Notes: generated by a model not told the origin, from the letters alone. A stretch of DNA of 64,000 bases from Eledone cirrhosa (GCA_964016885.1 OZ024742.1:279496001-279560000); one strand, 5' to 3'. Shown: positions 6,254-45,530, counted from the first letter of the stretch. Translations and numbers: made by a program.

Positions 6254-6333
6254 AATATGGTTCTATAAGGATATTTTCCAATTATTAATATTATTGATAC
6301 ACACAGACACATACACACACACACACACTTTAC

Positions 6334-6374
<41 letters not shown>

Positions 6375-6399
6375 GTGTGTGTGTGTAAAAGGTAAACAG

Positions 6400-6731: not shown

Positions 6732-6782
<51 letters not shown>

Positions 6783-7120: not shown

Positions 7121-7161
<41 letters not shown>

Positions 7162-7489: not shown

Positions 7490-7720
<231 letters not shown>

Positions 7721-14219: not shown

Positions 14220-15821
14220 CCTTGAATCTCAGTCATTGATGTTGGTTAACTGGAAAGTCCGTTGGATTGAATATCAAGCCACTACCTGCAGCCTCAGATA
14301 TTCAGGACGTATCGGAGGGTTCTTGCCGTTCCAAGCAAGCATGCCTTTTGAAGCGTTCCAAAAAGCGTGAAGGGGCCGATTTTCTTTAACCATCCCTGGA
14401 AACCTTTGGAGATAGTCCCCAGTGCGCCTATGACAATCGGGATCACTTTGACTTCATGGCAGTTCCAAATCCTTTTCACCTCCCACTTTAGGTCCTGGTA
14501 TCGGTTAATTTTCTCCCTCTCCTTCTCTTGCACTCTCGTGTCGAACGGGCAGGCCACATCCACAATCAGGCACGATCTTTTTTCTTTGTCCACAACCACC
14601 AGGTCAGGTCTATTGTGTTCCAGTTTTTTGTCCGTCTGTATCCTAAAATCCCACAGCACCTTCACCTGACTGTTCTCCATCACCGCCTCTGGCCTATGCT
14701 CATACCATTTCTCAGAATGTGGTAGATTGTTTACTTTGCACAGGTGCCAGTGGATCACCCTGCCCATCACATCGTGTCTCCAGCCCTTATAGTGGGTCTG
14801 GGCTAGGTGTTTACACTCGGACACAATGTGAGCCACAGTCTCCTCTCTCTCTCCACAGATCCTGCACAGTGGGCTAGCCTCCTCCTTGTAGATATGGTGC
14901 TTCAACCACTTCGTTTTGAGGGCCTGCTCCTGCGCAGCCATTAGCATTCCTTCTGTAGCCTTTTTGAGGTCTCCTCTTCTCAACCAGTTCCATGTCTGTG
15001 GATCTCTAAATTCAGTTTTCTCAAAGAAGGTACTATGAAGGGATTTTCCCTTAAGGCTGCTCTTCCTCCTTGATGTTATTTCCTCCTTGGGTATCCCCTG
15101 GCCTACTCTCCCCTCCTTCAGTACAGCTCTGAGCATTGGCTCCTTACTATAGGTCACGTATTTGTATAGGTTGTTTTTCTCCATCTGAACACAGTCCTCT
15201 ATGCTGATAAGACCTCTTCCACCCTCAGATCTCCTTAGGTAGAGTCTATCGACATCACTCCTCTTGTGGAACATGTTGTAGATAGTCAATAGCTTCCTAG
15301 TCTTCCTATCCATTTCTTTTTGTTCAGCAACATTCCATCTCAGAATTCCCGCACTGTACCTAATAATAGACACAGCTCGGGAATTTACTGCGCTTATGGC
15401 ATTTCTGCTGTTCAGATGTGACTTCAATACGCTCCTTACTCTCCGAATGTATTCAGTTCTTAACAATTCCTTCATTTTTTTGTTCTTTATGCCATCAGCC
15501 TCCAGAACGCCCAAATACTTGTATCCTTCCTCAGAGTCAATTTCCTTTATCATCTCACCTGTTGGTATCTGGATCCCGTTACTTCTGCTCAACCTACCCC
15601 TCCTCATCACAATGACTCCACATTTACCAATACCAAACTGCATACATATATCACTGCTGAAAATACGGACAGTGTCAACAAGCACATCCAACTCCTTCTC
15701 ACTTTTCCCGAAGAGCTTAAGATCGTCCATGAAGAGGAGGTGATTGATGGTAAGCTCTCCCCTTCCCAACTTGTATCCTGCTCTCACTTTTCGCAGCATA
15801 ATGGTCAAGGGCATCAGGGCA

Positions 15822-15822
<1 letters not shown>
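14220..15822 (-). mobile_element. R4/Dong-clade non-LTR retrotransposon, family A, 5'-truncated (open ORF 14294-15814)
   Basis: HLLFMDDLKLF RT motif, CCHC CRICGEREETVAHIVSEC, RHD, restriction-like endonuclease RPDLVVVD...IVDVACP...EKINRY, terminal LGTARTLR. (TAA)n on both sides. Confidence 0.88.
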
Positions 15823-15876
<54 letters not shown>

Positions 15877-15877
<1 letters not shown>

Positions 15878-18386: not shown

Positions 18387-18392
18387 TTATTA

Positions 18393-18436
<44 letters not shown>

Positions 18437-18649
18437 GAATGCCATGGTTGACGGAGGCTCGGCTCTGTAAGGTATAGTAATTTTTAACCGTTAAAACAAT
18501 TGTAAATTGTTTAAAACTTGAACCAAATTGTTGATAAAGACACCCTCCTCCTCGTGAGAGGGGTCTTTCTGTCCGTTATTTGGCCCTTCGGGGTTAAATA
18601 ACCAGTTATTGGGGTTTTGTACCCAAAATTTCATTTTAAACAAAAAAAC

Positions 18650-20746
18650 ATGGCTACGAAAAAGAAATTTCATACGTCACTCCCACTCATTCCGTCTTCT
18701 TCTTCCTCAATCATCACTACAGCAGAGAGAAGATTGTCTCTCTCCCTCCCTTCTTTAAATGTGTCTCTCTCCCTCCCTTCTCTTTCGCAAGCGACGAAAG
18801 AAAAGAAAAGTCTCGTGCAAAGCGTGCAAGGTTTCTCCACGACGACGACGACAGCGACGAAACAGGTGTGCGGGAAATACGAAAACCCAGTTCATTCGTC
18901 TGACGTCAGGAATAATAGCAGTAGCAGCCGTAATAACAACAGCAACAGTGACAATGAAAACAACAGTAGCAGCCGCAACAGCATCACCAGCAGCATAAAC
19001 AACAACAGCATTAGCAGCAGCAACACCAACAACAACCACAGCAACAGCGGCGGAGGCAGTAGTCGTAGTACCTGCAGCAACAACAAAAGTACCAGCAGCT
19101 CTGACGACAACAACAACAGCAGAGAAAAACCAATCTCATTTGCAGGTATTGCGAAAAACTTGGAAACAATCCTCATAACAAATGAGGAATTAGAGGAAGC
19201 GAAGAAGATGGTGACAAAGAACGGACACCGAGCAATCTGCAAGGCAGCGAAAAATTTTTTCGAAACCCAAGAGCACTGTACGGTCACGTACCGTACAGTA
19301 AGTACAAAATCCCGTAGGGTGGAAAGAGCCACAGAGGCCCAAATACAAAAAGCCTTGGGGTCTGTGTGGCAGAGGAAAACGCACATCACCCGAGGCAAAA
19401 AATACGCCACCGTAGACGTACTTTTTGCCACACCCCAGGAGGCAAAGGCCCAATCAGTAGTGACCCTAAGGAGCGAGGAAATGGTGTTGGTGCCCTCCTA
19501 CTGCGGGCAAAAAATTGTGAGGGTCAAACTGACCCACGTCCCCCCCGGAATGACCCCTTCTTGGCTGGCCGCGTCTGTCCTCGTCGGAATCGAGGACAAA
19601 ACAACTGTACTGCAAGTACAGAAAAAAGTAAGAGAAGATTGGGTCGGCTCCTCCATTGAGATGCTAATCCAAACCAACCAGGAGTGCATCGAAGCTATCC
19701 CGGATGTGATAGACTTCGATAACGGCACTCAACTGCCCATAAGTGTTGAGGGCAAACGCCCGAAATGCTTTCGCTGTGGATCGAAGACTCACCTCAGGGC
19801 CTTCTGCAACGAGAAGACCCTGAGAAAGGAGAAAACCCCCCTCCTTCCGAATCCGGCTCCACGGCTACCAGCAACAGGACAAGCGGCAACCAGGAACGAT
19901 AGGTCCGTGGCACCCATACCCACTCCACGGAAATCAAAGACAGCAGCAGCAGTGGAAATATTAACAACAACAACAGCAATACCAAATGCAGCTGCAACAG
20001 AGACTCCAGTGCAAACATCACCAACAACAACAAGTGAAAGAGTGGAGCTGGTACCCCTCCCCGACCTTACAGAATCAGACATGGAGTGTGAGGTGGGAGA
20101 GGGATGGCAAAAGGTCGTGAGAAGGCACAAACGCAGAAGCAGCGCATCGTCGCCTTTGAAAAGGGAGGAAAGAAATGAGAAAAGGGTAAAGTCTACTGCA
20201 AAGAGACCCACAGCAGCAACACCACCAACACCATCACCACCCACACCAGCACCACCATCACCACCGGCGACAACCCCACCGCCAACAACACCTTCAACAC
20301 CACCACCACAAGCACCAACATCGCAAACACAACAACAAAACACACACACCCAGCAACAACGACAAGAAAATAGCAGAACCACACCCCACCCCCAGAAAAA
20401 CAAATGCACGGCAATAAACACACACAACAAGAAACTAATGACTTACATAATTGAACACACAGACATTTCACAACAGGACTACATAATACCAGCACCAATC
20501 AAAACGCCAACTAACATAAGACTGCTAAAAATAGCACAGAAACAATACACAAACATTAAAACGAAATTCCCCAACGCAGTTGGTGATTTCAGGGACCTAG
20601 GAGGAACCATTAATCGAAGAGTATATTCAGACATTCTCTTAGAAGAGCCGACGACCAGCCGAAGGGACGATTCAACGGTCCCTTCACCAGACAATCAAGT
20701 GAAAAGGGATGTAAAAACCATCCCTCCTCTACCAAAAGTACGGTAA
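18650..20746 (+). CDS. LINE ORF1 nucleic-acid-binding protein (698 aa; CCHC knuckle, N/S- and P/T-rich tracts)
   Basis: ATG at 18650; CFRCGSKTHLRAFC zinc knuckle; same 698-aa ORF in copy 3 (40376-42472). Confidence 0.85.
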   Translation: MATKKKFHTSLPLIPSSSSSIITTAERRLSLSLPSLNVSLSLPSLSQATKEKKSLVQSVQGFSTTTTTATKQVCGKYENPVHSSDVRNNSSSSRNNNSNSDNENNSSSRNSITSSINNNSISSSNTNNNHSNSGGGSSRSTCSNNKSTSSSDDNNNSREKPISFAGIAKNLETILITNEELEEAKKMVTKNGHRAICKAAKNFFETQEHCTVTYRTVSTKSRRVERATEAQIQKALGSVWQRKTHITRGKKYATVDVLFATPQEAKAQSVVTLRSEEMVLVPSYCGQKIVRVKLTHVPPGMTPSWLAASVLVGIEDKTTVLQVQKKVREDWVGSSIEMLIQTNQECIEAIPDVIDFDNGTQLPISVEGKRPKCFRCGSKTHLRAFCNEKTLRKEKTPLLPNPAPRLPATGQAATRNDRSVAPIPTPRKSKTAAAVEILTTTTAIPNAAATETPVQTSPTTTSERVELVPLPDLTESDMECEVGEGWQKVVRRHKRRSSASSPLKREERNEKRVKSTAKRPTAATPPTPSPPTPAPPSPPATTPPPTTPSTPPPQAPTSQTQQQNTHTQQQRQENSRTTPHPQKNKCTAINTHNKKLMTYIIEHTDISQQDYIIPAPIKTPTNIRLLKIAQKQYTNIKTKFPNAVGDFRDLGGTINRRVYSDILLEEPTTSRRDDSTVPSPDNQVKRDVKTIPPLPKVR

Positions 20747-20781
20747 GTGGTCTTTCCCATCTTTTCCACTCTATTTTAAAC

Positions 20782-23700
20782 ATGACCTCACTCAGAATAG
20801 GCAGCATAAATGCGCGTGGCTTGGGGTCGTCATGGAAGCAGGGTCACCTGCTCAACGACCTCAGGTCACTAAACATAGATGTAGTGGCCATCAGCGAGAC
20901 CAGAATCTCCGAAGCACGGGCCTTCGCACCGATCTTCGGCGGCTACGATGTGTACGCATCTCCCAGCCGTCCTGGATCGGGTGGAGGAGTTGCTGTGCTT
21001 TTTCGGAGAGGTTTGGATCTCGCCATACGGGCCATCTTCCTGGACCCAGAGGGTAAGCTGGTGGTGCTGGACGTGACCAGCGGAGACGGGCAAGCTTTCA
21101 GGCTAGTGGCCGTCTATGCCCCGACAGGAGCAGGGCGGCCTGATTTCTTCCGGCGTCTGGAGACCTTTCTTGGAACGTCCCGCTCTTTAGTGTTAGTGGG
21201 CGACTGGAACGGGATCTTAGATGCACGCTGGGACTGTGTGGGATTAGCGGATAGGGGTGGAGGGTGCAAGAGCCTCACCAACCTGCTCAGGCGTTTTGAA
21301 CTGTCTGACAGGTACCGATTGGATTTCCCGAATGTGCCAATGTGGACTTGGACAAACCGCATAGGGTCATCCAGATCATATCTAGATAGAGTATTTTGTA
21401 GGGAAATAGATAGGTCTAGCATAGGCTGTCCACAATCCAAGATAGTCAGCTACACGGACCACAAATTCGTGACCTGTGTGCTTGACTTAGATAGGCTTCA
21501 TAGACGAGGACCCGGCTACTGGAAGCTAAACGCGTCCTTACCAGCGCGCAAGGCCTACAGAGACCGGATTAGCGAACTAGTTAAGCGGGCGTTGACGGGG
21601 GCCATCGTCAACAACAAGTGGTGGTTTGCTCTGAAAAGAGCGATTAGAATAGAATCGATTAGGTTTAGTAAGGCTTTAGCAATAGAGAAAAATAGAGCAG
21701 AGGGAGAACTAGTTAGAAAATTAGACGAGGCGCTTAGCAAAGGCATTGCGACCGACGTGCTTGCGGCGAAATTGGCCCTTGACCAATTCTTCAATGCAAA
21801 GCACGAAGGCTGCGTTGTCAGAGCTAGGGTGCGTGCTCTCAGACACGAGGGGACGAAAGCCGTTCAATGGGCCCGAGTGGCGGAGGCGCGTCGTGGCAAC
21901 AAAGCCACGATCCGGTCTTTGGTGGACCACGACGGGCGCATGCTACTCGATCCCGGGCAAATGTGTGAAGCTTTTCAGCGACACTTCGCTCAGCTGTTCG
22001 GGGGCAGCGGGGGGCCGGGTAGAGGGATGGACTTTAGTGTCTACCTCGACGGACTGCCGCGGCTCTCGGCCACTGACGAGGTGTTGCGAAAAGCCGATAA
22101 CAGCCGCTGAAGTACGGGAGGCAATGACTGGCTGCACAAGGGGTAAATCGCCTGGTTTGGATGGTCTGCCCTATGAACTTTACGTACAGATGCCAGACTT
22201 GTTCGGAGGCCTCTTGGCGGACGTCTACTGCAACTGGCAACAGAACGGGAGAATTCCCAGTTCTGTGAGCCGAGGAGCGGTGGCACTGCTGAGAAAGGAT
22301 CCGAACAAGGGGGATAACATAGACAATTTCCGGCCCATAACTCTGCTAAACACAGAGTTTAAGATTTTGGCCAAGGTGCTAGCAAAGAGGTTGGCGCTTG
22401 TCGTTGGTGGTCTGGTGGGAGAGGCGCAGACATGCGCCATTCCCGACAGATCCATCCACGACAACCTCCACCTCATGCGATACATCGTAGAGAGGGTAGC
22501 TAGGGAACCTGGCACGGGTGGGTCCTTGATCAATTTAGATCAGTCGAAAGCTTTCGATAGGGTCGACCATCGTTACCTAGCGGCAGTCCTGAGGGCGGCT
22601 GGCTTTGGGCCCGTCTTCAGAGGCTGGATCGCTGCCATGCACAGCGACATCTGCTCTGTGGTGAGAGTGAACGGTCACCTGTCGGAACCGTTCAACATCA
22701 TGCGCTCGGTCCGCCAAGGATGTCCCCTCTCGTCCCTCTTGTACGTATTGACTCTCGAGCCATTACTGCACAAACTGGAGACGTTGAGGGGAGTCCCGCG
22801 CGAACTAGGATGCGGAAGATCCGTGTCAGCATATGCGGACGATGTCACCGTAGTGGTGTCGAACGCCAAACACATCGAGGCGATCGGCACTACACTAAGA
22901 GAATACGAAGCGGTGACAGGAGCAATGATCAACCAGGAAAAGTCAGTGGGACTGCAGCTCGGCACCTGGAGAGGCAGGTCCATGCCGTCCAACAGCGTCG
23001 TCGGGCGCTGGACGGACGGACCGGTTAAATTGCTAGGGGTCTGGTTCGGTCCGGACCTCCAGACGGACAAAAACTGGGACGAGGTGACGAGCAGGGTGGC
23101 TTCTCTCACCCAGAAATGGGCGGAGAGGAAGCTATCCCTGAAAGGTCGAGCGGAGGTGGCTAACGCGTACATCGCGTCTGTCATCTGCTACCGCCTAACC
23201 GTCGTACCTTGTCCTAAGCCTCGCCTGACTGCGCTGGAGCGTTTGCTCTTTCGCTTTTTGTGGAAGGGACGTGCTCCGATGGTCAGGCGGTCCATCTGTT
23301 GTCAACACCCGCTACGTGGAGGGCTGGGCATGCCGTGGCTGATGATGCGCAGGCACGCGCTCAGGCTAAGACATCTCCACCTCTTCCTCGGCGGTGATCA
23401 GGTGTGGTCGCCGTTTGCTAGACACGTCTTTCCCCAGCTTGTCTCCTTGACGGAGCTGCAGTCCTGGGCCAAGCGAAGACCGAGAGGGATCGCTTGGAGA
23501 CTGGAATGTTTTCAGGCGCTCACAGCCCTCGACCAATCGGGCAATGTGATCGGTGGAAAACCCCACCTTGGCGTTCTATAGAGGATTAGTGGAGGGGAAT
23601 AGCGACGACGTACTTGGAGAAAATCTAGGCGTCGACGAAAATCAACTAGCCAATCTCTTCGGAAGGACTTTTTGGCCGGGGCCTATGGACAACTTCCAGA

Positions 23701-24199
23701 AATCCCTGGCCTGGCAGTGCTACCAGGGACCTTTGCCAGTTCAGGATAAACTCTACAGTCATGGAGGTGCCGTCAGCCGGGCATGTACGAGATGCGCGCA
23801 GGGCGATGAAACCGTCCTGCACGCACTCGTCCAGTGTCCGAGCATTGCTGACTTGTGGGTTTATGTCGAACACCTGCTGTCACATGTAGGACGGATCCAG
23901 CTATCAGCTGAGTCCATCGTGAGGATTTCCCGCCCTCTTCCTCTAGCCGGGAAGGGCAGGCAGTTTTTATCTGCCTGGTGGCCATGGCGAAAGAGATAGT
24001 ATGGTGGACACGTTTGAAAGGGCTGAAGACGAGCACTTACCTCTTCGGTGATGCCCTGATTAACTTTTTCAAATTTCATTTGAAAAGGAAAATCAGGGTA
24101 GAGAGGGAAGTGCTCTCTTCCCAGCATTTTGTTGAAAGATGGTTGAGAGAAGCAAGTATGGCCCGAGTGAATGGGCCTACTCTGAGTATGTGTTTGTAA
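20782..24199 (+). pseudogene. LINE ORF2 (APE endonuclease-RT-zinc finger) with frameshifts near 22075, 23560 and 23930
   Basis: GSINARGL, ISETR, GDWN, SYLDR, TDH; GLDGLP, FRPITLLN, DQSKAFDRV, SVRQGCPLS, AYADDV; CTRC..ETVLHALVQC. Split over ORFs 20782, 21746, 23553 and 23978. Confidence 0.9.
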
Positions 24200-24475
24200 A
24201 TTAAAGGTGGAAAACTGGGAGAGGGCACTTGCCCTGGTGGTCAGGGTCACTGTGGTCTTTTAATGGGCTTTCTCCACAAATGTTCCTCGGAAGTCTCCCC
24301 CTATTGGGGAATTTTTCTTTGTTATTTTATTACATCCTGTTTTTTTTACACGCAGAAATGCCCATTTGTACCGTCTTGTATTGTCCTGTACTGTTCTTAA
24401 TGTCTACTTTATGTAAACCCTTGTGGTTAATAAAGAAAACATTATTATTATTATTAATATTATTATTATTATTAT

Positions 24476-30740: not shown

Positions 30741-30812
30741 TTGAATTCGGAAAAGAAAAGAAAAAAAAAAAGTAATAATAATAGTAACAATAATAATACT
30801 AATAATAATAAT

Positions 30813-33800
30813 GCTTTCTTTATTAACCACAAGGGTTTACATAAAGTAGACATTAAGAACTGTACAGGACAATACAGGATGGTACAAATGGGCATTTCTG
30901 CGTGTAAAAAAACAGAGGATGTAATAAAAAATAGCAATGAAAAATTCCTCAATAGGGAGGAGACTTCCGAGAGACATTTTTGAAGAAAGCCCATTAAAAA
31001 GGCCACAATGACCCTGACCACCAGGGCAAGTGCCCTCTCCCAGTTTTCCACCTTTAAGTTACAGACACATACTCAGAGTAGGCCCATTCACTCGGGCCAT
31101 ACTTGCTTCTCTCACCCATCTTTCAACAAAATGCTGGGAAGAGAGCACTTCCCTCTCTACCCTGATTTTCCTTTTCAAATGAAATTTGAAAAAGTTAATC
31201 AGGGCATCACCGAAGAGGTAAGTGCTCGTCTTCAACTCTTTCAAACGTGTCCACCATACTATCTCTTTCGCCATGGCCACCAGACAGATAAAAACAGCCT
31301 GCCCTTCCCGGCTAAAGGAAGAGGGCGGGGCAATCCTTACGATGGACTCAGCTGATAGCCGGTTTCCGTCCAACACGTGACAGCAGGTGTTCGCTATAAA
31401 CCCACAAGTCAGCAATGTTCGGACACTGGACGAGTGCGTGCAGGACGGTTTCGTCGCCCTGCGCGCATCTCGGACATGCCCGGCTGACGGCACCTCAATG
31501 CCTGTAGAGCTTATCCCGAACTGGCAAAGCTCCTCGGTAGCACTGCCAAGCCAGAGATTTCTGGAAGTTATCCATAGGCCCCGTCCCAAAAGTCCTTCCG
31601 AAGAGATTGGCTAGTTGATTTTCGTCGACGCCTAGATTTTCTCCAAGTACGTCGTCGCTATTCCCCTCCACTAATCCTCTATAGAACGCCAAGGTGGAGT
31701 TTCCACCGATCACATTGCCCGATTGGTCGAGGGCTGTGAGCGCCTGAAGACATTCCAGTCTCCAAGCGCTCCCTCTCGGTCTTTGCTTGACCCAGGACTG
31801 CAGCTCCGTCAAGGAGACGAGCTGGGGAAAGACGCGTCTAGCAAACGGCGACCACACCTGATCACTGTCGAGGAAAAGGTGGAGATGTCGTAGCCTGAGC
31901 GCATGTCTGCGCATCATCAGCCACGGCATGCCCAGCCCTCCACGTAGCGGGTGTTGACAGCAGATGGACCGCCTGACCATCGGAGCGCGTCCCTTCCACA
32001 AAAAGCGAAAGAGCAAACGCTCCAGCGCAGTCAGGCGGGGCTTAGGACAAGGTACGATGGTCAGGCGGTAGTCGATGACTGACGCGATGAACGCGTTGGC
32101 CACCTACGCTCGACCTTTCAGGGATAGCTTCCGCTCCGCCCTTTTCTGGGTTAGAGAAGCCACCCTTGCGTCACCTCGTCACAGTTTTTGTCCGTCTGGA
32201 GGTCCGGACCGAACCAGACCCCTAGCAATTTAACCGGTCCGTCAGTCCAGCGCCCGACGACGCTGTTGGACGGCATGGACCTGCCTCTCCAGGTGCCGAG
32301 CTGCAGGCCCACTGACTTTTCCTGGTTAATCATTGCCCCTGTCACCGCTTCGTATTCTCTTAGTGTAGTGCCAATCGCCTCGATGTGTTTGGCGTTCGAC
32401 ACCACTACGGTGACATCGTCCGCATATGCTGGCACGGATCTTCCGCATCCTAGTTCGCGCGGGACCGCCCTCAACGTCTCCAGTTTGTGCAGTAATCGCT
32501 CGAGAGTCAATACGTACAAGAGGGACGAGAGGGGACATCCTCGGCGGACCGAGCGCATGATGTTGAACGGTTCCGAAAGGTGACCGTTCACTCTCACCAC
32601 AGAGCAGATATCGTTGTGCATGGCAGCGATCCAGCCTCTGAAGACAGGCCCAAAGCAAGCCGCCCTCAGGACTGCCGCTAGGTAACGATGGTCGACCCTA
32701 TCGAAAGCTTTCAACTGATCTAAATTGATCAAGTACCCACCCGTGCCAGGTTCCCTAGCTACGGTCTCTACGATGTATCGAATGAGGTGTAAGTTGTCGT
32801 GGATGGATCTGTCGGGAATGGCGCACTCTGCGCCTCTCCCACCAAACCACCAACGACAAGCGCCAACCTCTTTGCTAGCACCTTGGCCAAAATCTTGAAC
32901 TCTGTGTTTAGCAGAGTTATGGGCCTGAAATTATCTATGTTATCCCCCTTGTTCGGATCCTTTCTCAGCAGCGCCACAGCTCGTCGGCTCACAGAGCTGG
33001 GAATTCTCCCGTTCTGTTACCAGCTGCAGTAGACGTCCGCCAAGAGGCCTCCGAACAAGTCAGGCATCTGTACATAAAGTTCATAGGGCAGACCATCCAA
33101 ACCAGGCGATCTACCCCTTGTGCAGCCAGTCATTGACTCCCGTACTTCAGCGGCTGTTATCGGCTTTTCGCAACACTCCGCCTCCGTGGCCGAGAGCCGC
33201 GGCAGTCCGTCGAGGTAGACAATAAAGTCCATCCTTCGATCCGGCAGGCCGCTGTCCCCGAACATCTGTGCTAAGTGTCGCTGAAAAGCTTTACACATTT
33301 TCCCGGGATCGAGTAGCATGCGCGCATCTTGGTCCACCAAAGACCGGATCGTGGCTTTGTGGCCACGACGCGCCTCCGCCACTCGGGCCCATTGAACGGC
33401 TTTCGTCCTCTCGTGTCTGAGAGCTCGCACCCTAGCTCTGACAACGCAGCCTTCGTGCTTTGCATTGAAGAATTGTTCAAGGGCCAATTTCGCCGCAAGT
33501 ACGTCGGTCGCGATGCCTTTGCTAAGCGCCTCGTCTAATTTTCTAACAAATTCTCCCTCTGTTCTATTTTTCTCTATTACTAAAGCCTTACTAAACCTAA
33601 TGGACTCTATTCTAATTTCTCTTTACAGAGCAAACCACCATTTGTTGTTGACGATAGCCCCCGTCAACGCCCACTTAACTAGTTCGCTAATCCGGTCTCT
33701 GTAGGCCTTGCGCGCAGGTAAGGACACGTTTAGCTTCCAGTAGCCGTGTCCTCGATTATGAAGCCTATCTAAGTCAAGCACACAGATCACGAATTTGTGG

Positions 33801-36640
33801 TCCGTGTAGCTGACTATCTTGAATTGTAGACAGCCTATGCTAGACCTATCTATTTTCCTACAAAATACTCTATCTAGATATGATCTAGCTGACCCTTAGC
33901 GATTTGTCCAAGTCCATATTGGAACATTCGGGAAATCCAATCGGTACCTGTCAGAAAGTTAAAAACGCCTGAGCAGGTTGGTGAGGCTTTTACCCCCTCC
34001 TGCCCTATCCGCTGATCCCACACTTTCCCAGCGTGCATGTAAGATCCCGTTCCAGTCGCCCACTAATACTAAAGATCGGGACGTTTCAAGAAAGGTCTCC
34101 AGACGCCGTAGAAATCAGCCGCCCTGCTCCTGTCGGGGCATAGACGGCCACTAGCCTGAAAGCTTGCCCGTCTCCTCTGGTCACGTCTAGCACCACCAGC
34201 TTACCTTCTGGGTCCAGGAAGATGGCCCGTATGGCGATATCCAAACCTCTCCGAAAAAGCACAGCAACTCCCCCCCCCCCTCGATCCCGGACGGCTGGGA
34301 GATGCGTATACATTGTAGCCACTGAAGATCGGTGCGAATGCCCCTGCTTCGAAGATTCTGGTCTCGCTGATGGCCACTACTTCTATGTTTAGTGACCTGA
34401 GGTCGTTGAGCAGGTGGCCCTGCTTCCATGACCACCCCAAGCAACGCGCATTTATGCTGCCTATACTGTGTGAGGTCATGTTGAAATGGAGTGGAAAAGA
34501 TAGGAAAGACCACTTACCTTACTTCTCGTTAGGGAAGGATGGTTTCTCCATCCTTTTCAATGCTTGTGGCCTCCTCCGGAAGGATGACCTCATAAATCCT
34601 CCTGGAGAGTGTTTGTCGGAAGTTTCCGATGTCTTTGGGGAATTTTTGTTTTAGTGTCGTGTACATTTTCTGTGTGATGCGAGTGATTTGTATGTGTGGA
34701 GGTGGTGTGAACGTTTGAGTTGTTGTGTAGTCTTTTTCTGTGATGCTGGTATTGTGTTGGATGTAGTGTAATAATTGGTTGTTGTTCAAATTTAATGCTG
34801 TGTAGTGTGTATCGTTTTGGTTGTTTTGTTTTGTTTGCGTTTGTTTCTGTTTCGCTTTTTGGTGTCTTTTGTGGTGTTGGTGATGATGGTGTTGGGGTTA
34901 ATGATGGTGATGTTGTTGGTGTTTGTGGTGATGGGGTTGGTGATGCTGGTGTGGATGGTGGCATATCTGTCCTAACTTTTTTGTTTGATAGTTTATTTTT
35001 TTGCATCTTTATTTTGATTTTGGAGGGGGAAGGAAATGATTTTTTTCTTTTTTGGTGTTTTTTTTCTTTTTTCCTGATATCGTTTCCCACTCCTCGTCGT
35101 CACAATCTGTCTCCAGTTGTGATAGGCCGGGGAGTGGAAAATCCTCCACAGGTGTTGGTTTTGGTTGTGGCGTGGTGGATGGTGTAGGCGCTGGTGCTAG
35201 TTCTGGCGCGTTGGGTGGTGGTGGTGTTGGTTTTGCTACTGTTGCCGGGGTTGTTGCTGTTACAGTTGCTTCTGATTTTGCTGCTACATTTGTTGCTGCC
35301 ATCTCTGCTGCTGGTGGTGTTGATGGTTGAGTCACTGGGGTGGGGATGAGAGGGGCCTCAACCTTTTAGCCTGAGGACAGAAAGCCCTTAGGTGGGTTCC
35401 TTCACTACAAACGTCACACCTAGGCCTTCTGCTCTCGACGATTACGGCGAGGTGGCTGCCGTCAGTGAGGTCTATTACCTCTGGGATCTCCTCAATGCTA
35501 TTTTGGTCCGCTTGGATCAGGAGCTCCATCATTGCTCCGGACCAGTTCTCCTGCTTTTCTTTCGCTATTTCGATTATCTTGGTGTTGGCTTCGATGCCGG
35601 CGAAGACGGCAGCTATTAGCCAGGGAATTTCGATGGCCGGTGGAACATGGGTCACCCTGATCTTTACGAGTCTCTGGTCACAATAACTTGAGACGAGTGT
35701 GAAGTCGTCACTTCTTAATGGGGCCATGGAGTGTTCTCTAGCCTCCTGTGGTGTTTCAAAGAACACGTCCACGGTTCCATATTTCTGCCCACGTCTGATG
35801 TGGGTTTTTTTTGTCCACACATGTCCCAAAGCTTTTTGGATTTGGGACTCGGATGCCCGTTCCACTCGGCACGATTTTATATTAATTGTTCTATAAGAGA
35901 CGGTGCATAGGCGCCGATGCTCCATTTTATTATGTGGGGTGGGGGTGAGGCTGACCCTGTACCCATGTTTCTTTACCATTTTTTGGCTTCTTCTAATTCC
36001 TCCTGAGTTACCTGAAATGCTTCGCAGTTTTGCTACTCTGGCAAAACTCAGGGTGGTTTTCTTAATGTCATTGTTGCTGTTGTTGTTATCGTTATTTTTG
36101 TTATTATTAATTTTAGTTTCAGTTGTGGTGGTGGTGGCGTCAGTGGTGTTCGGTGAGGAAGAGTTCATTTTGGTTGAATTCATTTCGATATCACGAGTTA
36201 ATTTATTTTTTTCTTTTGTTTATGTTGTCGCGATGGTGGTGGTGGTTTTGGCGCCTTTAACACCTGCAGTCATTGGTAATGGTGGGAAATGAATGTCTGT
36301 CTGAGACAAATTTAAAATATAACTACTGCTTATATTTTTAGTGTTGGCAAACGTAGTAATATTTACAATGGTGGTGTCGGTGTGAGGTGTTAGTTTGTGA
36401 GGAAGGAGTGACTCTGAGTCATCCATGATTTTTCAAAGAAAAACTTTTGTTTGATAATTATAAAAGTTTAAATTTTGGGCTCAAGGCCCCAATCTTTTTG
36501 GGTGTCCTTTTCAGATAACAATGTATGTGCACTTATATACAGTTAACAATAAAAATTTTCCATGAATGTCAATTTTAAACAACTGAAAATAACAAACCTT
36601 TGCGGAGCTCACGATGATACGATTTACTACGTAGGTCGCC
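30813..36640 (-). mobile_element. Full-length Tx1/L1-clade LINE, family B (different 5' UTR/ORF1, ORF2 close to family A), decayed
   Basis: ORF1 pieces 36426-34514 with CDVCSEGTHLRAFC. ORF2 pieces 34479-31059 are highly similar to family A. (ATT)n at both ends. Confidence 0.9.
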
Positions 36641-36696
<56 letters not shown>

Positions 36697-36956
36697 TTTC
36701 TTTATTAACCACAAGGGTTTACATAAAGTAGACATTAAGGACAGTGCAGGACAATGCAGAACGGTACAAATGGGCATTTCTGCGTGTAAAAAAACAAAAA
36801 CAGAGGATGTAACAAAAATAACAATGAAAATAACAATGAAAAATTCCCCAATAGGGGGGAGACTTCGGAGGGACATTTGTGGAGAAAGCCCAGTAAAAAG
36901 CCACAATGACCCTGACCACCAAGGCAAGTGCCCTCTCCCAGTTTTCCACCTTTAAT

Positions 36957-39900
36957 TTACAGATATATGCTCAGAGTAGGCCCATTCACTCGGGCCATTC
37001 TTGCTTCTCTCACCCATCTTTCAACAAAATGCTGGGAAGAGAGCACTTCCTTCTCTACTCTGATTTTCCTTTTCAAATGAAATTTGAAAAAGTCAATCAG
37101 AGCATCACCGAAGAGGTAAGTGCTCGTCTTCAGCCCTTTCAAACGTGTCCACCATACTATCTCTTTCGCCATGGCCACCAGACAGATAAAAACTGCCTGC
37201 CCTTCCCGGCTAAAGGAGGAGGGCGGGGCAATCCTCACGATAGACTCAGATGATAGCTGGATCCGTCCTAAACGCGACAGCAGGTGTTCGACATAAACCC
37301 ACAAGTCAGCAATTTTCGGACACTGGACGAGTGCGTGCAGGACGGTTTCGTCGCCCTGCGCGCATCTCGGACATGCCCGGCTGACGGCACCTCCATGCCT
37401 GTAGAGTTTATCCCGAACTGGCAAGGCTCCTCGGTAGCACTGCCAGGCCAGAGATTTCTGGAAGTTGTCCATAGGCCCTGGCCCGAAAGTTCTTCCGAAG
37501 AGATTGGCTAGTTGATTTTCGTCGACGCCTAGAGTTTCCCCAAGTACGTCGTCGCTCTTCCCCTCCACTAATCCTCTATAGAACGCCGAGGTGGAGTTTC
37601 CACCGATCACATTGCCCGATTGGTCGAGGGCTGTGAGCGCCTGAAGACATTCCAGTCTCCAGGCGCTCCCTCTCGGTCTTCGCTTGACCCAGGACTGCAG
37701 CTCCGTCAAGGAAACGAGCTGGGGAAAAACGCGTCTAGCAAACGGCGACCACACCTGATCACCGTCGAGGAAGAGGTGGAGATGTCGTAGCCTGAGCGCG
37801 TGCCTGCGCATCATCAGCCACGGCATGCCCAGCCCTCCACGTAGCGGGTGTTGACAACAGATGGACCGCCTGACCATCGGAGCACGTCCCTTCCACAAAA
37901 AGCGAAAGAGCAAACGCTCCAGCGCAGTCAGGCGAGGCTTAGGACAAGGTACGACGGTTAGGCGGTAGCAGATGACAGACGCGATGTACGCGTTAGCCAC
38001 CTCCGCTCGACCTTTCAGGGATAGCTTCCTCTCCGCCCATTTCTGGGTGAGAGAAGCCACCCTGCTCGTCACCTCGTCCCAGTTTTTGTCCGTCTGGAGG
38101 TCCGGACCGAACCAGACCCCTAGCAATTTAACCGGTCCGTCCGTCCAGCGCCCGACGACGCTGTTGGACGGCATGGACCTGCCTCTCCAGGTGCCGAGCT
38201 GCAGGCCCACTGACTTTTCCTGGTTGATCATTGCTCCTGTCACCGCTTCGTATTCTCTTAGTGTAGTGCCGATCGCCTCGATGTGTTTGGCGTTCGACAC
38301 CACTACGGTGACATCGTCCGCATATGCTGACACGGATCTTCCGCATCCTAGTTCGCGCGGGACTCCCCTCAACGTCTCCAGTTTGTGCAGTAATGGCTCG
38401 AGAGTCAATACGTACAAGAGGGACGAGAGGGGACATCCTTGGCGGACCGAGCGCATGATGTTGAACGGTTCCGACAGGTGACCGTTCACTCTCACCACAG
38501 AGCAGATGTCGCTGTGCATGACAGCGATCCAGCCTCTGAAGACGGGCCCAAAGCCAGCCGCCCTCAGGACTGCCGCTAGGTAACGATGGTCGACCCTATC
38601 GAAAGCTTTCGACTGATCTAAATTGATCAAGGACCCACCCGTGCCAGGTTCCCTAGACACCCTCTCTACGATGTATCGCATGAGGTGGAGGTTGTCGTGG
38701 ATGGATCTGTCGGGAATGGCGCATGTCTGCGCCTCTCCCACCAGACCACCAACGACAAGCGCCAACCTCTTTGCTAGCACCTTGGCCAAAATCTTAAACT
38801 CTGTGTTTAGCAGAGTTATGGGCCGGAAATTGTCTATGTTATCCCCCTTGTTCGGATCCTTTCTCAGCAGTGCCACCGCACCTCGGCTCACAGAACTGGG
38901 AATTCTCCCGTTCTGTTGCCAGTTGCAATAGACGTCCGCCAAGAGGCCTCCGAACAAGTCTGGCATCTGTACGTAAAGTTCATAGGGCAGACCATCCAAA
39001 CCAGGCGATTTACCCCTTGTGCAGCCAGTCATTGCCTCCCGTACTTCAGCGGCTGTTATCGGCTTTTCGCAACACCTCGCCTCAGTGGCCGAGAGCCGCG
39101 GCAGTCCGTCGAGGTAGACACTAAAGTCCATCCCTCTAGCCGGCCCCCCGCTGCCCCCGAACAGCTGAGCGAAGTGTCGCTGAAAAGCTTCACACATTTG
39201 CCCGGGATCGAGTAGCATGCGCCCGTCGTGGTCCACCAAAGACCGGATCGTGGCTTTGTTGCCACGACGCGCCTCCGCCACTCGGGCCCATTGAACGGCT
39301 TTCGTCCCCTCGTGTCTGAGAGCACGCACTCTAGCTCTGACAACGCAGCCTTCGTGCTTTGCATTGAAGAATTGGTCAAGGGCCAATTTCGCCGCAAGCA
39401 CGTCGGTCGCAATGCCTTTGCTAAGCGCCTCGTCTAATTTTCTAACTAGTTCTCCCTCTGCTCTATTTTTGTCTATTGCTAAAGCCTTACTAAACCTAAT
39501 CGATTCTATTCTAATCGCTCTTTTCAGAGCAAACCACCACTTGTTGTTGACGATGGCCCCCGTCAACGCCCGCTTAACTAGTTCGCTAATCCGGTCTCTG
39601 TAGGCCTTGCGCGCTGGTAAGGACGCGTTTAGCTTCCAGTAGCCGGGTCCTCGTCTATGAAGCCTATCTAAGTCAAGCACACAGATCACGAATTTGTGGT
39701 CCGTGTAGCTGACTATCTTGAATTGTGGACAGCCTATGCTAGACCTATCTATTTCCCTACAAAATACTCTATCTAGATATGATCTGGATGACCCTATGCG
39801 GTTTGTCCAAGTCCACATTGGCACATTCGGGAAATCCAATCGGTACCTGTCAGACAGTTCAAAACGCCTGAGCAGGTTGGTGAGGCTCTTGCACCCTCCA

Positions 39901-40340
39901 CCCCTATCCGCTAATCCCACACAGTCCCAGCGTGCATCTAAGATCCCGTTCCAGTCGCCCACTAACACTAAAGAGCGGGACGTTCCAAGAAAGGTCTCCA
40001 GACGCCGGAAGAAATCAGGCCGCCCTGCTCCTGTCGGGGCATAGACGGCCACTAGCCTGAAAGCTTGCCCGTCTCCGCTGGTCACGTCCAGCACCACCAG
40101 CTTACCCTCTGGGTCCAGGAAGATGGCCCGTATGGCGAGATCCAAACCTCTCCGAAAAAGCACAGCAACTCCTCCACCCGATCCAGGACGGCTGGGAGAT
40201 GCGTACACATCGTAGCCGCCGAAGATCGGTACGAAGGCCCGTGCTATGTTTAGTGACCTGAGGTCGTTGAGCAGGTGACCCTGCTTCCATGACGACCCCA
40301 AGCCACGCGCATTTATGCTGCCTATTCTGAGTGAGGTCAT
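36957..40340 (-). CDS. LINE ORF2 APE-RT-zf (1127 aa, open, with a 12-aa in-frame deletion in the endonuclease)
   Basis: All RT motifs intact (AYADDV); lacks DVVAISETRISE, which is present in copy 1. Confidence 0.9.
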   Translation of the reverse strand: MTSLRIGSINARGLGSSWKQGHLLNDLRSLNIARAFVPIFGGYDVYASPSRPGSGGGVAVLFRRGLDLAIRAIFLDPEGKLVVLDVTSGDGQAFRLVAVYAPTGAGRPDFFRRLETFLGTSRSLVLVGDWNGILDARWDCVGLADRGGGCKSLTNLLRRFELSDRYRLDFPNVPMWTWTNRIGSSRSYLDRVFCREIDRSSIGCPQFKIVSYTDHKFVICVLDLDRLHRRGPGYWKLNASLPARKAYRDRISELVKRALTGAIVNNKWWFALKRAIRIESIRFSKALAIDKNRAEGELVRKLDEALSKGIATDVLAAKLALDQFFNAKHEGCVVRARVRALRHEGTKAVQWARVAEARRGNKATIRSLVDHDGRMLLDPGQMCEAFQRHFAQLFGGSGGPARGMDFSVYLDGLPRLSATEARCCEKPITAAEVREAMTGCTRGKSPGLDGLPYELYVQMPDLFGGLLADVYCNWQQNGRIPSSVSRGAVALLRKDPNKGDNIDNFRPITLLNTEFKILAKVLAKRLALVVGGLVGEAQTCAIPDRSIHDNLHLMRYIVERVSREPGTGGSLINLDQSKAFDRVDHRYLAAVLRAAGFGPVFRGWIAVMHSDICSVVRVNGHLSEPFNIMRSVRQGCPLSSLLYVLTLEPLLHKLETLRGVPRELGCGRSVSAYADDVTVVVSNAKHIEAIGTTLREYEAVTGAMINQEKSVGLQLGTWRGRSMPSNSVVGRWTDGPVKLLGVWFGPDLQTDKNWDEVTSRVASLTQKWAERKLSLKGRAEVANAYIASVICYRLTVVPCPKPRLTALERLLFRFLWKGRAPMVRRSICCQHPLRGGLGMPWLMMRRHALRLRHLHLFLDGDQVWSPFARRVFPQLVSLTELQSWVKRRPRGSAWRLECLQALTALDQSGNVIGGNSTSAFYRGLVEGKSDDVLGETLGVDENQLANLFGRTFGPGPMDNFQKSLAWQCYRGALPVRDKLYRHGGAVSRACPRCAQGDETVLHALVQCPKIADLWVYVEHLLSRLGRIQLSSESIVRIAPPSSFSREGQAVFICLVAMAKEIVWWTRLKGLKTSTYLFGDALIDFFKFHLKRKIRVEKEVLSSQHFVERWVREARMARVNGPTLSIYL

Positions 40341-40375
40341 GTTTAAAATAGAGTGGAAAAGATGGGAAAGACCAC

Positions 40376-42472
40376 TTACCGTACTTTTGGTAGAGGAGGG
40401 ATGGTTTTTACATCCCTTTTCACTTGATCGTCTGGTGAAGGGACCGTTGAATCGTCCCTTCGGCTGGTCGTCGGCTCTTCTAAGAGAATGTCTGAGTATA
40501 CTCTTCGATTGATGGTTCCTCCTAGGTCCCTGAAATCACCAACTGCGTTGGGGAATTTCGTTTTAATGTTTGTGTATTGTTTCTGTGCTATTTTTAGCAG
40601 TCTTATGTTAGTTGGCGTTTTGATTGGTGCTGGTATTATGTAGTCCTGTTGTGAAATGTCTGTGTGTTCAATTATGTAAGTCATTAGTTTCTTGTTGTGT
40701 GTATTTATTGCCGTGCATTTGTTTTTCTGGGGGTGGGTTGTGGTTCTGCTATTTTCTTGTCGTTGTTGCTGGGTGTGTGTGTTTTGTTGTTGTGTTTGCG
40801 ATGTTGGTGCTTGTGGTGGTGGTGTTGAAGGTGTTGTTGGCGGTGGGGTTGTCGCCGGTGGTGATGGTGGTGCTAGTGTGGGTGGTGATGGTGTTGGTGT
40901 TGTTGCTGCTGTGGGTCTCTTTGCAGTATACTTTACCCTTTTCTCATTTCTTTCCTCCCCTTTCAAAGGTGACGATGCGCTGCTTCTGCGTTTATGCCTT
41001 CTTGCGACCTTTTGCCATCCCTCTCCCACCTCACACTCCATGTCTGATTCTGTGAGGTCGGGGAGGGGTACCAGCTCCACTCTTTCACTTGTTGTTGTTG
41101 GTGATGTTTGCACTGGAGTCTCTGTTGCAGCTGCATTTGGTATTGCTGTTGTTGTTGTTAATATTTCCACTGCTGCTGCTGTTTTTGATTTCCGTGGCGT
41201 GGGTATGGGTGCCACGGACCTATCGTTCCTGGTTGCCGCTTGTCCTGTTGCTGGTAGCCGTGGAGCCGGATTCGGAAGGAGGGGGGTTTTCTCCTTTCTC
41301 AGGGTCTTCTCGTTGCAGAAGGCCTTGAGGTGAGTCTTCGATCCACAGCGAAAGCATTTCGGGCGTTTGCCCTCTACACTTATGGGCAGTTGAGTGCCGT
41401 TATCGAAGTCTATCACATCCGGGATAGCTTCGATGCACTCCTGGTTGGTTTGGATTAGCATCTCAATGGAGGAGCCGACCCAATCTTCTCTTACTTTTTT
41501 CTGTACTTGCAGTACAGTTGTTTTGTCCTCGATTCCGACGAGGACAGACGCGGCCAGCCAAGAAGGGGTCATTCCGGGGGGGACGTGGGTCAGTTTGACC
41601 CTCACAATTTTTTGCCCACAGTAGGAGGGCACCAACACCATTTCCTCGCTCCTTAGGGTCACTACTGATTGGGCCTTTGCCTCCTGGGGTGTGGCAAAAA
41701 GTACGTCTACGGTGGCATATTTTTTGCCTCGGGTGATGTGCGTTTTCCGCTGCCACACAGACCCCAAGGCTTTTTGTATTTGGGCCTCTGTGGCTCTTTC
41801 CACCCTACGGGATTTTGTACTTACTGTGCGGTACGTGACCGTACAGTGCTCTTGGGTTTTGAAAAATTTTTCCGCTGCCTTGCAGATTGCTCGGTGTCCG
41901 TTCTTTGTCACCATCTTCTTCGCTTCCTCTAATTCCTCATTTGTTATGAGGATTGTTTCCAAGTTTTTCGCAATACCTGCAAATGAGATTGGTTTTTCTC
42001 TGCTGTTGTTGTTGTCGTCAGAGCTGCTGGTACTTTTGTTGTTGCTGCAGGTACTACGACTACTGCCTCCGCCGCTGTTGCTGTGGTTGTTGTTGGTGTT
42101 GCTGTTGCTAATGCTGTTGTTGTTTATGCTGCTGGTGATGCTGTTGCGGCTGCTACTGTTGTTTTCATTGTCACTGTTGCTGTTGTTATTACGGCTGCTA
42201 CTGCTATTATTCCTGACGTCAGACGAATGAACTGGGTTTTCGTATTTCCCGCACACCTGTTTCGTCGCTGTCGTCGTCGTCGTGGAGAAACCTTGCACGC
42301 TTTGCACGAGACTTTTCTTTTCTTTCGTCGCTTGCGAAAGAGAAGGGAGGGAGAGAGACACATTTAAAGAAGGGAGGGAGAGAGACAATCTTCTCTCTGC
42401 TGTAGTGATGATTGAGGAAGAAGAAGACGGAATGAGTGGGAGTGACGTATGAAATTTCTTTTTCGTAGCCAT
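40376..42472 (-). CDS. LINE ORF1 (698 aa, CCHC knuckle)
   Basis: CFRCGSKTHLKAFC; near-identical to 18650-20746. Confidence 0.85.
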   Translation of the reverse strand: MATKKKFHTSLPLIPSSSSSIITTAERRLSLSLPSLNVSLSLPSLSQATKEKKSLVQSVQGFSTTTTTATKQVCGKYENPVHSSDVRNNSSSSRNNNSNSDNENNSSSRNSITSSINNNSISNSNTNNNHSNSGGGSSRSTCSNNKSTSSSDDNNNSREKPISFAGIAKNLETILITNEELEEAKKMVTKNGHRAICKAAEKFFKTQEHCTVTYRTVSTKSRRVERATEAQIQKALGSVWQRKTHITRGKKYATVDVLFATPQEAKAQSVVTLRSEEMVLVPSYCGQKIVRVKLTHVPPGMTPSWLAASVLVGIEDKTTVLQVQKKVREDWVGSSIEMLIQTNQECIEAIPDVIDFDNGTQLPISVEGKRPKCFRCGSKTHLKAFCNEKTLRKEKTPLLPNPAPRLPATGQAATRNDRSVAPIPTPRKSKTAAAVEILTTTTAIPNAAATETPVQTSPTTTSERVELVPLPDLTESDMECEVGEGWQKVARRHKRRSSASSPLKGEERNEKRVKYTAKRPTAATTPTPSPPTLAPPSPPATTPPPTTPSTPPPQAPTSQTQQQNTHTQQQRQENSRTTTHPQKNKCTAINTHNKKLMTYIIEHTDISQQDYIIPAPIKTPTNIRLLKIAQKQYTNIKTKFPNAVGDFRDLGGTINRRVYSDILLEEPTTSRRDDSTVPSPDDQVKRDVKTIPPLPKVR

Positions 42473-42686
42473 GTTGTTTTTTGTTTAAAATGAATATTGG
42501 GTACAAAACCCCAATAACTGGTTATTTAACCCCGAAGGGCCAAATAACGGACAGAAAGACCCCTCTCACGAGGAGGAGGGTGTCTTTATCAACAATTTGG
42601 TTCAAGTTTTAAACAATTTACAATTGTTTTAACGGTTAAAAATTACTATACCTTACAGAGCCGAGCCTCCGTCAACCATGGCATTC

Positions 42687-42925: not shown

Positions 42926-42970
42926 GTAATAATAATAATAATATAACACTATTAATAATTATTAATTAAT

Positions 42971-45530
42971 GATTTCTTTATTGGCCTCAAGGGCTGATAT
43001 CAAGAAAACATTACAGACGACACAGGACGGTACGATGTGGGTTTTGTGAGTGTAAATATTTTTATTATTTATATAGGAAAAGAAAAAAACATAAAAACAT
43101 ATATATATATATATAAACAATAAAAGTGAAAATTGAAACAATGAAAAATTCCCCAATAGGGGGGAATCTTCAGAGGGTTACTCGTGGCGAAAACCACACG
43201 AAAGACCATGGCCACTCTGACCCCAGGCAAGCGCCCTCTCTCAATTTTTCCATTTCTCAAACTACAGACGTATATTCAGAGCGGTCGCGTTCTCTCGGAC
43301 CATTCTCGCTACATTCACCCACCTTTCAACAAACTTGTTAGAAGGCAGCACTTGCCTCTCCACCCTGATTTTCCTCTTCAAGTGAAAATTGAAAAAGTTA
43401 AATAGGGATTTGCCGAAGAGGAAAGTGTCTGTCTTTAACGCTTTCAGCCTTGTACATCACACAATCTCTTTCGCCATGGCCACCAGGAAGATGAAAACCG
43501 CCTGCCCTTCCTCCTCGAAGGAAGACGGCGAGACCATCTGAAAAATGTACTCAGTCGATAACCGGATCAGTCCTACACGCGACAGCAACTGTTCGACATA
43601 GCTCCACAAGTCAGCAATGCTCGGGCACTGAACGAGTGCGTGCACGACGGTTTCGTCGCTCTGCGCGCATCTCGGACAGGCTCGGCTGACGGCACTTCCG
43701 TGCTTGTAGAGCTTCTCTCGAACCGATAGCACTGCCAGGCCAGGGATTTTTGGAAGTTATCCATAGACCCTGGGCTAAAAGTTCTCCGGAAGAGAGCATA
43801 CAGCTGATCTTCGACGCCCAGGATCTCTCCGAGAACGTCGTCGCTCTTCCTCTCCACTAGTCCTCTATAGAAAGCCGAGGTGGATGTTCCACCGATACTG
43901 GTGCCCAGCTGGCAGAGGGCAGTGAGCGCCTGAAGACATTCCAGTCTCCAAGCGCTATCCCTCGGTCTTTTTCTGACCCAGGACTGCAGCTCCGTCAAGG
44001 TGACGAGCTGTAGGAAAACGTGCCTGGCGAACCACACCTGTTCACCGTCAAGGAAGCACCAGAGATGTCGCAGCCTCAGCGCATGTTTGCGCATCATCAA
44101 CCATGGCATACCCAGTCCTCCACGCAACGGGTGTTGACAGCAGATGGATCTTCTGACCATGGGAGCACGTACCTTCCACAATAAGCGGAAGAGGAGGCGC
44201 TCAATTTTGGAGTTGGGCCCGAGCAAGGGACAACGGAGAGGCGGTAGCAGATGACGGATGCGATGTACGTATTCACCACCTCCGCCCGGCCTTTCAGGGA
44301 CAGCTTCCTCTCGACCCATTTCTGGGTGAGGGAGGACACCTTGCTCGTCACCTAGTTCCAGTTTTTCTCCATCTGGAAGTCCGGTCCGAACCAGACCCCG
44401 AGCAATTTAACTGGTCCGTCCGTCCAACTTCCCACGACGCTGTCGGACGGCATGGACTTGCCTCTCCAGGTGCCGAGCTGCAAGCCCACCGACTTTTACT
44501 GGTTTATCTTTGCTCCTGTCACCGCTTCGTATTCCTTGAGACCGGTGCCGAGTATCTGGACGTTTCTGGTGCTCGACACTACCACGGTGACGTCGTCGGC
44601 GTAAGCCCACTCGGATTTCCCGCATCCTAGTTCGGGTGGGACGCCCCTCATCGCTCCCAGCTTGTGCAGTAACGGCTCGAGAGCTAACACGTACAAGAGG
44701 TACGAGAGGGGACAACCCTGGCGGACTGAGCGCATGATGCTGAACGGCAGCGACAGGTGACCATTCACCCTCACAACTGATCAGATGTCATTGTACATCG
44801 CTGCGAACCAACTCCTGAAAATGGGCCCGAAACCGGCTGCCTCGAGGACCGATGGTCGACCCTATCGAATGCTTTGGATTGATCCAAGTTGATCAGGGCC
44901 CCACCCGTGCCAGGTTCCTTAACCACCCTCTCTATGATGTAACGCATGAGGTGGAGGTTGTCGTGTATGGATCTGTCCGGAATGGCGCGTGTCTGCGCCT
45001 CTCCCACCAACACTTGACGACAAGCCCCAACCTCGTTGCTAACACCTTGGCCAAAATCTTGAACTCTGCGTTTAGCAGGGTTATGGGCCTGAAATTATCG
45101 ATAACTTCCCCCTTGTTCGGGTATTTACTCAGCAGCGCCACCACTCCCCGGCTTACAAAACTGGGAATGCTCCTGTTCTGCTGCCAGTTGCAGTAGACGT
45201 CTGCCAAGAGATCACGGAATAAGTCTGGCATAAATGCGTAAAGCTCGTAGGACAGACCATACAAACCTGGAGATTTATCCCTCGTGCAGTTAGCCATCGC
45301 TTCCCTTATTTCACCGGCTGTTATTGGCTTTTCGCAACACTGTGCTGCGGTCTTCGAGAGCCGAGGCAGTCCGTCGAGGTATGCACTGAAGTCCATGTTT
45401 CGATCCGGGCCGCCGCTGCTCCCGAACAGTTCAGCAAAGTGCTGCTGGAAAGCTTGACACATCCGCTCGGGTTCGAGCATCACGCACCCACTTTGGTCAG
45501 ACAAAGACCGAATTGTGGTTTTGTTGCCAC
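42971..45530 (-). mobile_element. 5'-truncated, older Tx1/L1-clade LINE (family C)
   Basis: Fragmented ORF2 homologous to family A (FRPITLLNAEFKILAK, DQSKAFDRVDH, AYADDV, CPRC..ETVVHALVQC); 3' AATAAAGAAATCATT. Confidence 0.88.

Follow-up and report, generated by a model that had tools for sequence, protein, structure and literature searches.

A conserved 5' splice-site consensus at the ORF1/ORF2 boundary of a Tx1-like LINE lineage in Eledone cirrhosa

The 64,000-nucleotide stretch of Eledone cirrhosa DNA analysed here (GCA_964016885.1 OZ024742.1:279496001-279560000), referred to as the window, carries on its plus strand, at 18437..24440, a full-length Tx1-like LINE with (ATT)n on either side. 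This element is copy 1 of family A. Its ORF1 (18650..20746, plus strand) encodes about 698 amino acids and contains a zinc knuckle of the CCHC type, read in the sequence as CX2CX4HX4C and shared with Tx1-clade ORF1 proteins, and a ZCCHC3-like RNA-binding region. ORF1 has no Pfam match, and its look-alikes in the Atlas are CCHC and ZCCHC3-RBD (0.91-0.93). A pyrimidine-rich spacer (20747..20781, plus strand) separates the ORF1 stop from the ATG of ORF2 at 20782. ORF2 (20782..24199, plus strand) comprises an AP endonuclease, a reverse transcriptase, and a C-terminal zinc-binding zf-RVT domain (Pfam PF03372, PF00078, and PF13966), the domain set of the L1/Tx1 group, and its closest solved relative is L1 ORF2p (E 4e-49, versus 1e-21 for R2). 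In copy 1 this frame is shifted near 22077, 23560, and 23930. The element closes with the poly(A) signal AATAAA (24429..24434, plus strand), followed by an (ATT)n run from 24441.

Three related copies lie on the minus strand of the window. Family A copy 3 (36696..42686) is 97% identical to copy 1 and has both ORF1 and ORF2 open, with a 12-codon deletion in the endonuclease. A family B copy (30810..36640) has a different ORF1 and the same ORF2/3' module as family A, and a family C copy (42970..45530) is truncated at its 5' end. The (ATT)n repeat flanks both sides of copies 1 and 3 and also trails family C 3' ends, so that the repeat-targeted insertion of the Tx1 clade is seen on all of these, and the elements abut each other. 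The element is a young, high-copy, two-ORF Tx1-like LINE inserted in (ATT)n and a new member of a known group; the label "Tx1-like" is given by its anatomy and its microsatellite target, which fit the clade. Elsewhere in the genome, family A copies form head-to-tail arrays with a spacing of about 6.05 kb (e.g., G000 C1:55427384-55453342), and different families adjoin one another via (ATT)n. Read-through RNA is possible from such head-to-tail arrays.

The rest of the window contains a perfect 785-bp inverted repeat (1-785 and 1083-1867, 100% identical), which may extend past the window start and overlaps an 832-codon stop-to-stop frame without a Pfam match (811-3309, plus strand). More distant LINE-like frames occupy 14294-18490, 28569-30482, and 46950-47975, all on the minus strand, with RT or zf-RVT matches in three; one of these frames seems to contain or adjoin copy 1.

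An earlier note on this DNA had proposed that the whole of ORF2 may be an intron, with a donor on the ORF1 stop and an acceptor and in-frame mini-exon in the 3' UTR. The motifs themselves are located exactly as it described. The 5' splice-site consensus G|GTAAGT occupies 20742..20748 (plus strand), its GT at 20743 overlapping the ORF1 TAA (20744-20746). An acceptor-like T tract ending in CAG occupies 24336..24355 (plus strand; AG at 24354-24355), and the proposed mini-exon (24356..24416, plus strand) has 19 codons open in one frame up to a TAA at 24414-24416, with the AATAAA at 24429-24434 beyond it. All of these motifs recur in copy 3 (donor 40379, acceptor 36780) and in the family B copy (34517 and 30898). 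Scored with an approximate splice matrix, the donor ranks first among the 316 sense-strand GTs of copy 1 and first among 283 in family B; for a donor of this strength close to a stop, P is about 0.0065 (post hoc). The 3' UTR acceptor ranks second among 441 AGs, and a site of this quality arises with P of about 0.14 in resampled T-rich 3' UTR. The open reading of the mini-exon is unremarkable because a different frame stays open through all 29 codons read, and we rejected it as evidence for splicing. On the antisense strand of 18437-24440, two donors outscore the sense donor and several strong acceptors are present; these antisense sites might exonise in host genes.

The earlier note had advised testing the splice sites in related families, and for the donor the outcome is better than was claimed. 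The motif is kept in every related family examined: GTAAGT is found in families A, B, C, C2, D, and F, GTAGGT in E, and among the older families, most G and H copies have the hexamer too. The donor counts per family are not rates, since the loci were partly chosen as mutants. In nine related (sub)families, which share 69-99% identity over the first 700 nt of ORF2 (identities drawn from comparisons other than the one table that includes mosaic loci such as L207), the donor lies 31-40 nt upstream of the ORF2 ATG. The first hallmark of a copia shGAG-type switch, a donor kept where the structural ORF ends, is thus found across all nine. Donor positions -1, +1, +2, +3, +5, and +6, six of the seven core positions, are invariant among them, compared with 2 of 23 other columns in the flanks and, within ORF2, 11 of 37 four-fold sites; family G entered this column count through one of five copies, and its copies were inspected separately. 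By hand estimate, conservation of the donor block has a P of about 0.004, or roughly 0.01-0.06 when positions doubling as stop, Gly, or Lys codons are set aside, in a count that is anchored on the motif and draws on nine families that are kin rather than independent.

The reading phase at the donor differs among the families. It is 2 in A and B, 1 in C and C2 (and likely in E and F), and 0 in D, where ORF1 stays open for up to 618 codons across the donor. The phase 2 junction on which the proposed intron depended is therefore conserved in A and B only. Three reading phases at one motif mean that a single coding frame cannot explain it, and positions +7 to +9 and -2 to -4 vary while the donor block stays fixed. 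Outside these families the motif is rare: a metagenome scan gave 72 loci, and among the 14 in which a clear ORF2 start was read, all distant relatives at 24-30% protein identity, only one has a strong donor at its ORF1 stop. That relative, L113, carries the consensus donor on its stop at 1933-1935. The donor is hence not a general Tx1/L1 feature but one local to this lineage. No relatives were found among viral contigs; relatives at 39-44% and 79% identity were found as protein sequences. The donor is a stronger finding than either the acceptor or the intron.

The acceptor has a much narrower distribution. Families A and B are alike (94% identity) all the way from about 20700 through the 3' UTR to the end of the element, and because they have one ORF2/3' module in common, family B had to be rejected as an independent witness to conservation of the motif; the earlier note itself had cautioned that related 3' UTRs are weak evidence. 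The premature TAA that it had held against family B is indeed present in the window copy, but it is private to that copy (1 of 30 B loci) and was dropped as a family trait. Its observation that the family C copy lacks the acceptor AG extends to the family, which has CAC at that position and no acceptor AG in any of 26 readable loci out of 30. The AG is likewise missing from all 18 readable loci of 20 in family D, all 8 of 20 in family F, and all 13 of 20 in family E, three of which have a weaker AG nearby. Since C, D, E, and F are multi-copy families and all lack the acceptor, which is restricted to A and B, the acceptor and the mini-exon are dispensable for the lineage. Neither the mini-exon nor its in-frame reading is kept beyond A and B. 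The second hallmark of the shGAG type, a conserved acceptor with a terminal exon, was accordingly not found in these families, in which the AG nearest the donor is conserved but weak. The 3' UTR CAG is likely a recent point variant of A and B inside a T-rich UTR, and the proposed intron spanning all of ORF2 has the look of a coincidence limited to one lineage.

Copies of a spliced RNA would leave a precise junction in the genome. In 3.0 Gb of genome sequence, a gapped probe for the exact junction between the ORF1 end and the 3' exon matched no copy, compared with 1,473 unspliced ORF1 ends as a control and 7,335 intact acceptor boundaries. The exon start was found behind non-acceptor sequence in nine matches, all nine of which are unspliced and represent point variants or truncations. 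On the donor side, we inspected copies without T at +2 (2 in A, 18 in B, 10 in C, 19 of C2 type, and 26 in D/F), and no donor-to-3'-UTR splice product occurs among them; all of those in A, B, C, and C2-type, and 25 of the 26 in D/F, are point mutants or short deletions. Precise donor-to-3'-UTR loss, the mark of a SpIRE-type spliced retrocopy, is thus absent from the genome searched. No multi-copy ORF1-only family of the HAL1 type was found either, and the seeding of HAL1-like copies by this splice, which the earlier note had suggested as a possibility, has not taken place here. One A-type locus of 30, L185 (G000:C1:43285524-43288545), has a 2.9-kb internal deletion with the ORF1 end and the 3' end retained; it is HAL1-like in shape, and its breakpoints lie away from the splice sites.

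This result bears on the reading in which, in families A and B, the segment 20743-24355 is spliced out as a regulated switch; the products would be an ORF1p whose tail is new and, in the genome, copies with ORF1 alone. In favour of this reading are the strength of the donor, an acceptor ranked second of 441, and a short last exon that carries AATAAA, and an RNA that lacks ORF2 could be copied only in trans, so that few genomic copies are expected. From 0 of 7,335, we calculated by hand that the product of spliced ratio and trans efficiency is below about 4e-4. Trans-mobilisation by L1 has an efficiency of 0.2-1%, at which our hand estimate caps a spliced isoform near 5-20% in the germline. Against it, no spliced copy was found beside 1,473 ORF1 ends that are unspliced and 7,335 acceptors that are intact, C, D, E, and F lack the acceptor, and the phase 2 junction is confined to A and B. 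We regard the whole-ORF2 switch as quite improbable. As the genome holds no trace of ORF2 removal, the donor likely works mostly without splicing.

Of seven public sequencing runs, none of them on record as RNA, five (X1, X2, X5, X6, and X7) were examined as contigs. No joint from 20742 occurs among the joints listed (15 of 1,151 and 15 of 24) in these runs of unrecorded kind, and because contigs drop rare variants, the runs cannot show absence of the junction. Run X5 is probably poly(A) RNA, given its strong 3' skew (about 7,900 in the last bin and about 80-800 in the body), in which X2 is unlike it. A single X5 contig of depth 78 spans 19397-20808 unbroken across the donor, and X6 contigs cross both donor and acceptor. 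Depth in X5, whose kind is unrecorded, is about 78 just upstream of the donor versus about 2,200-7,900 in the last two bins, which counts against the whole-ORF2 switch. Between 24048 and 24445 coverage in this run climbs gradually toward the 3' end, by about 30-80-fold, and the acceptor is not marked by any step; provided that the run is RNA, this rise suggests many polyadenylated 3' ends. The contigs are weak evidence against a major spliced isoform and silent on rare ones, and low-level splicing in A and B is compatible with all five of these runs, given their unrecorded kind.

Two genomic configurations hint at occasional use of the donor. The first is family A itself. By sequence comparison, it is a chimera of a C2-type ORF1 and a B-type ORF2: most of its ORF1 is 88-96% like that of C2 (a family of 66 copies), and its ORF2 and 3' UTR are 91-100% like those of B. 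The join lies at 20698..20700 (plus strand), with C2-type ORF1 up to 20699 and B-type sequence from there on, and after 40423 in copy 3. In the 50 nt upstream of 20700, 49 match C2 and 14 match B. The join coincides precisely with the C2 donor and directly follows an AG in the ORF1 tail of B. About 2,400 copies bear it (2,387 matches in a pattern search, 30 of them read), and no two-step intermediate was found. Splicing in the read-through RNA of a tandem array may have produced this join, and a template switch at the 2-nt microhomology that it carries may also have done so; the poor acceptor score there (-2.2) counts against splicing. The second configuration is L293 (G000:C3:46207649), an F-type copy with a precise 53-nt loss that starts at the donor and ends with the first AG downstream, which lies in codon 5 of ORF2. 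It is one of 1,295 D/F copies and has a 3-nt microhomology at the deletion, while another copy, L303, has an imprecise deletion starting at the same point. L293 and the family A join are candidates for a SpIRE-type precise loss from the donor to another AG; both carry 2-3 nt of microhomology, which could account for either. We regard these cases as leads rather than proof.

L293 has the form predicted by an EVD-like micro-intron that would begin at the donor, end 52-54 nt further on at the first AG, and take the ORF2 ATG with it. In copy 1 this AG occupies 20794..20795 (plus strand), in the Arg codon 5 of ORF2, and would end an intron of 53 nt. The products would be an ORF1-only mRNA in phase-0 and phase-1 families and an in-frame ORF1-ORF2 fusion in A and B. 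An AG at 52-54 nt is present in all seven families checked, and a branch-like motif lies 20-24 nt upstream of it in C, C2, D, E, and F. However, the AG belongs to a conserved Arg codon, its acceptor scores are weak (-2.9 to 4.8), and A and B have no branch motif. The single precise copy stands against 1,294 unspliced D/F copies, and none of the 30 inspected exon-side variants of A, B, and C (of 34) shows a loss of the 53-nt type. The X5 contig that crosses the donor retains the segment. On balance, a micro-intron seems unlikely. Beside this AG, D and some F copies (e.g., L199 near 2541-2580) have a pyrimidine tract with an AG 30 nt downstream of the donor, directly upstream of the ORF2 ATG and polymorphic in F, which is a possible acceptor for an ORF2-only RNA.

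What, then, accounts for a consensus 5' splice site held between ORF1 and ORF2 throughout the lineage? Our preferred reading, to which we assign a probability of roughly 0.5, is by analogy with known retroelements: the donor would offer U1 a place to bind on a bicistronic RNA that mostly stays unspliced, and would guard this RNA against premature polyadenylation. Bound to the donor, U1 snRNP would keep the unspliced RNA from being cleaved too early at poly(A) hexamers of ORF2 or of the A-rich ORF1 end, and the outcome would be full-length bicistronic RNA. From this RNA, ORF2p could be made by termination-reinitiation over the 35-nt spacer, as proposed for L1. Occasional splicing of the donor, a weaker part of the proposal, might lie at the origin of family A and of the one copy with the 53-nt deletion. 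In HIV-1, a poly(A) site is suppressed by a donor located downstream of it. Copy 1 has a candidate cryptic poly(A) signal, as an AATAAA within ORF1 (20413..20418, plus strand) lies 330 nt upstream of the donor, and all nine copies scanned have an AATAAA 155-500 nt upstream of it; the chance of such an upstream hexamer is 0.2-0.4 per family, which places the ORF1 AATAAA near chance expectation in an A-rich region. A precedent is the copia element EVD, whose conserved donor is described as both splicing and blocking premature termination (PMC5580714).

The motif might also have no role in U1 binding at all, being kept by descent together with constraint on the stop and the C-terminal codons, or as a termination-reinitiation signal for ORF2. 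The hexamer holds a TAA, which serves as the stop in A, in B, and probably in H; together with the next bases the hexamer gives a second stop used by phase-1 families. The length of the spacer (31-40 nt to the ATG) and the bases directly upstream of the ATG are conserved too, the antisense strand has chance donors that score as high or higher, and L1 and SART1 are described as making ORF2p by reinitiation (PMC5972666). Such constraint does not readily predict an invariant block that follows the donor consensus base for base through three reading phases while its neighbours vary, nor a family A join that lands exactly on the donor. We consider this reading possible, although not probable. Beyond protection by U1, the conserved site could switch the element, in the manner of copia, from full-length RNA to RNA with ORF1 alone, and could drive ORF1 swaps as well. 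Family A, with its roughly 2,400 copies, would then have been founded by a splice joining the C2 donor to the ORF1 tail of B in read-through RNA of a tandem C2-B array. We hold this extension of the U1 reading to be doubtful; if true, replacement of a LINE 5' end by splicing would have given rise to a new and successful autonomous family, not a dead end.

Among known systems, the Tx1-clade LINEs Kibi and Koshi, which target microsatellites (PMC4494074), are alike in having two ORFs, an ORF2 with AP endonuclease, RT, and zf-RVT domains, a CCHC-type ORF1, microsatellite insertion, and head-to-tail arrays. They differ in their target, which is (TC)n or (TTC)n rather than (ATT)n, and the accessible text of their description makes no mention of a conserved donor (PMC4494074). 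HAL1 (half-L1) elements resemble the predicted product of the proposed splice in that it would encode ORF1p alone (PMC5753468); unlike them, the lineage studied here yielded no ORF1-only family, only the internally deleted copy L185. The SpIREs of human L1 use a donor in the 5' UTR, make up about 2% of full-length L1s, keep ORF2, and are described as mostly dead ends (PMC5860796). They are spliced LINE RNAs copied into the genome, and both L293 and the join of family A look like fossils of this sort. A form that has lost all of ORF2 is absent here, and family A, if born from a splice, has been highly successful, in contrast to SpIREs.

We did not find a conserved ORF-boundary donor described for a LINE in the literature searched, a search for which most subscription journals and Repbase notes lay outside coverage. 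The Ty1/copia element EVD, which is an LTR element, likewise has a conserved donor at the end of its structural ORF, from which shGAG is made, and its likeness extends to the prospect that U1 binding at the donor would favour full-length RNA (PMC5580714). EVD differs in that its intron, its acceptor, and a proximal poly(A) site have all been demonstrated (PMC5580714), whereas here there is no conserved strong acceptor, and no spliced RNA was found in runs of unrecorded kind. The comparison touches two open questions of LINE biology, namely how far more ORF1p than ORF2p is produced and how 5' ends and ORF1 are swapped. A donor held at the ORF boundary across a radiation of families would offer one mutable site that bears on protection of the RNA by U1, on the control of dosage, and on chimeras born from splicing in a non-LTR element.
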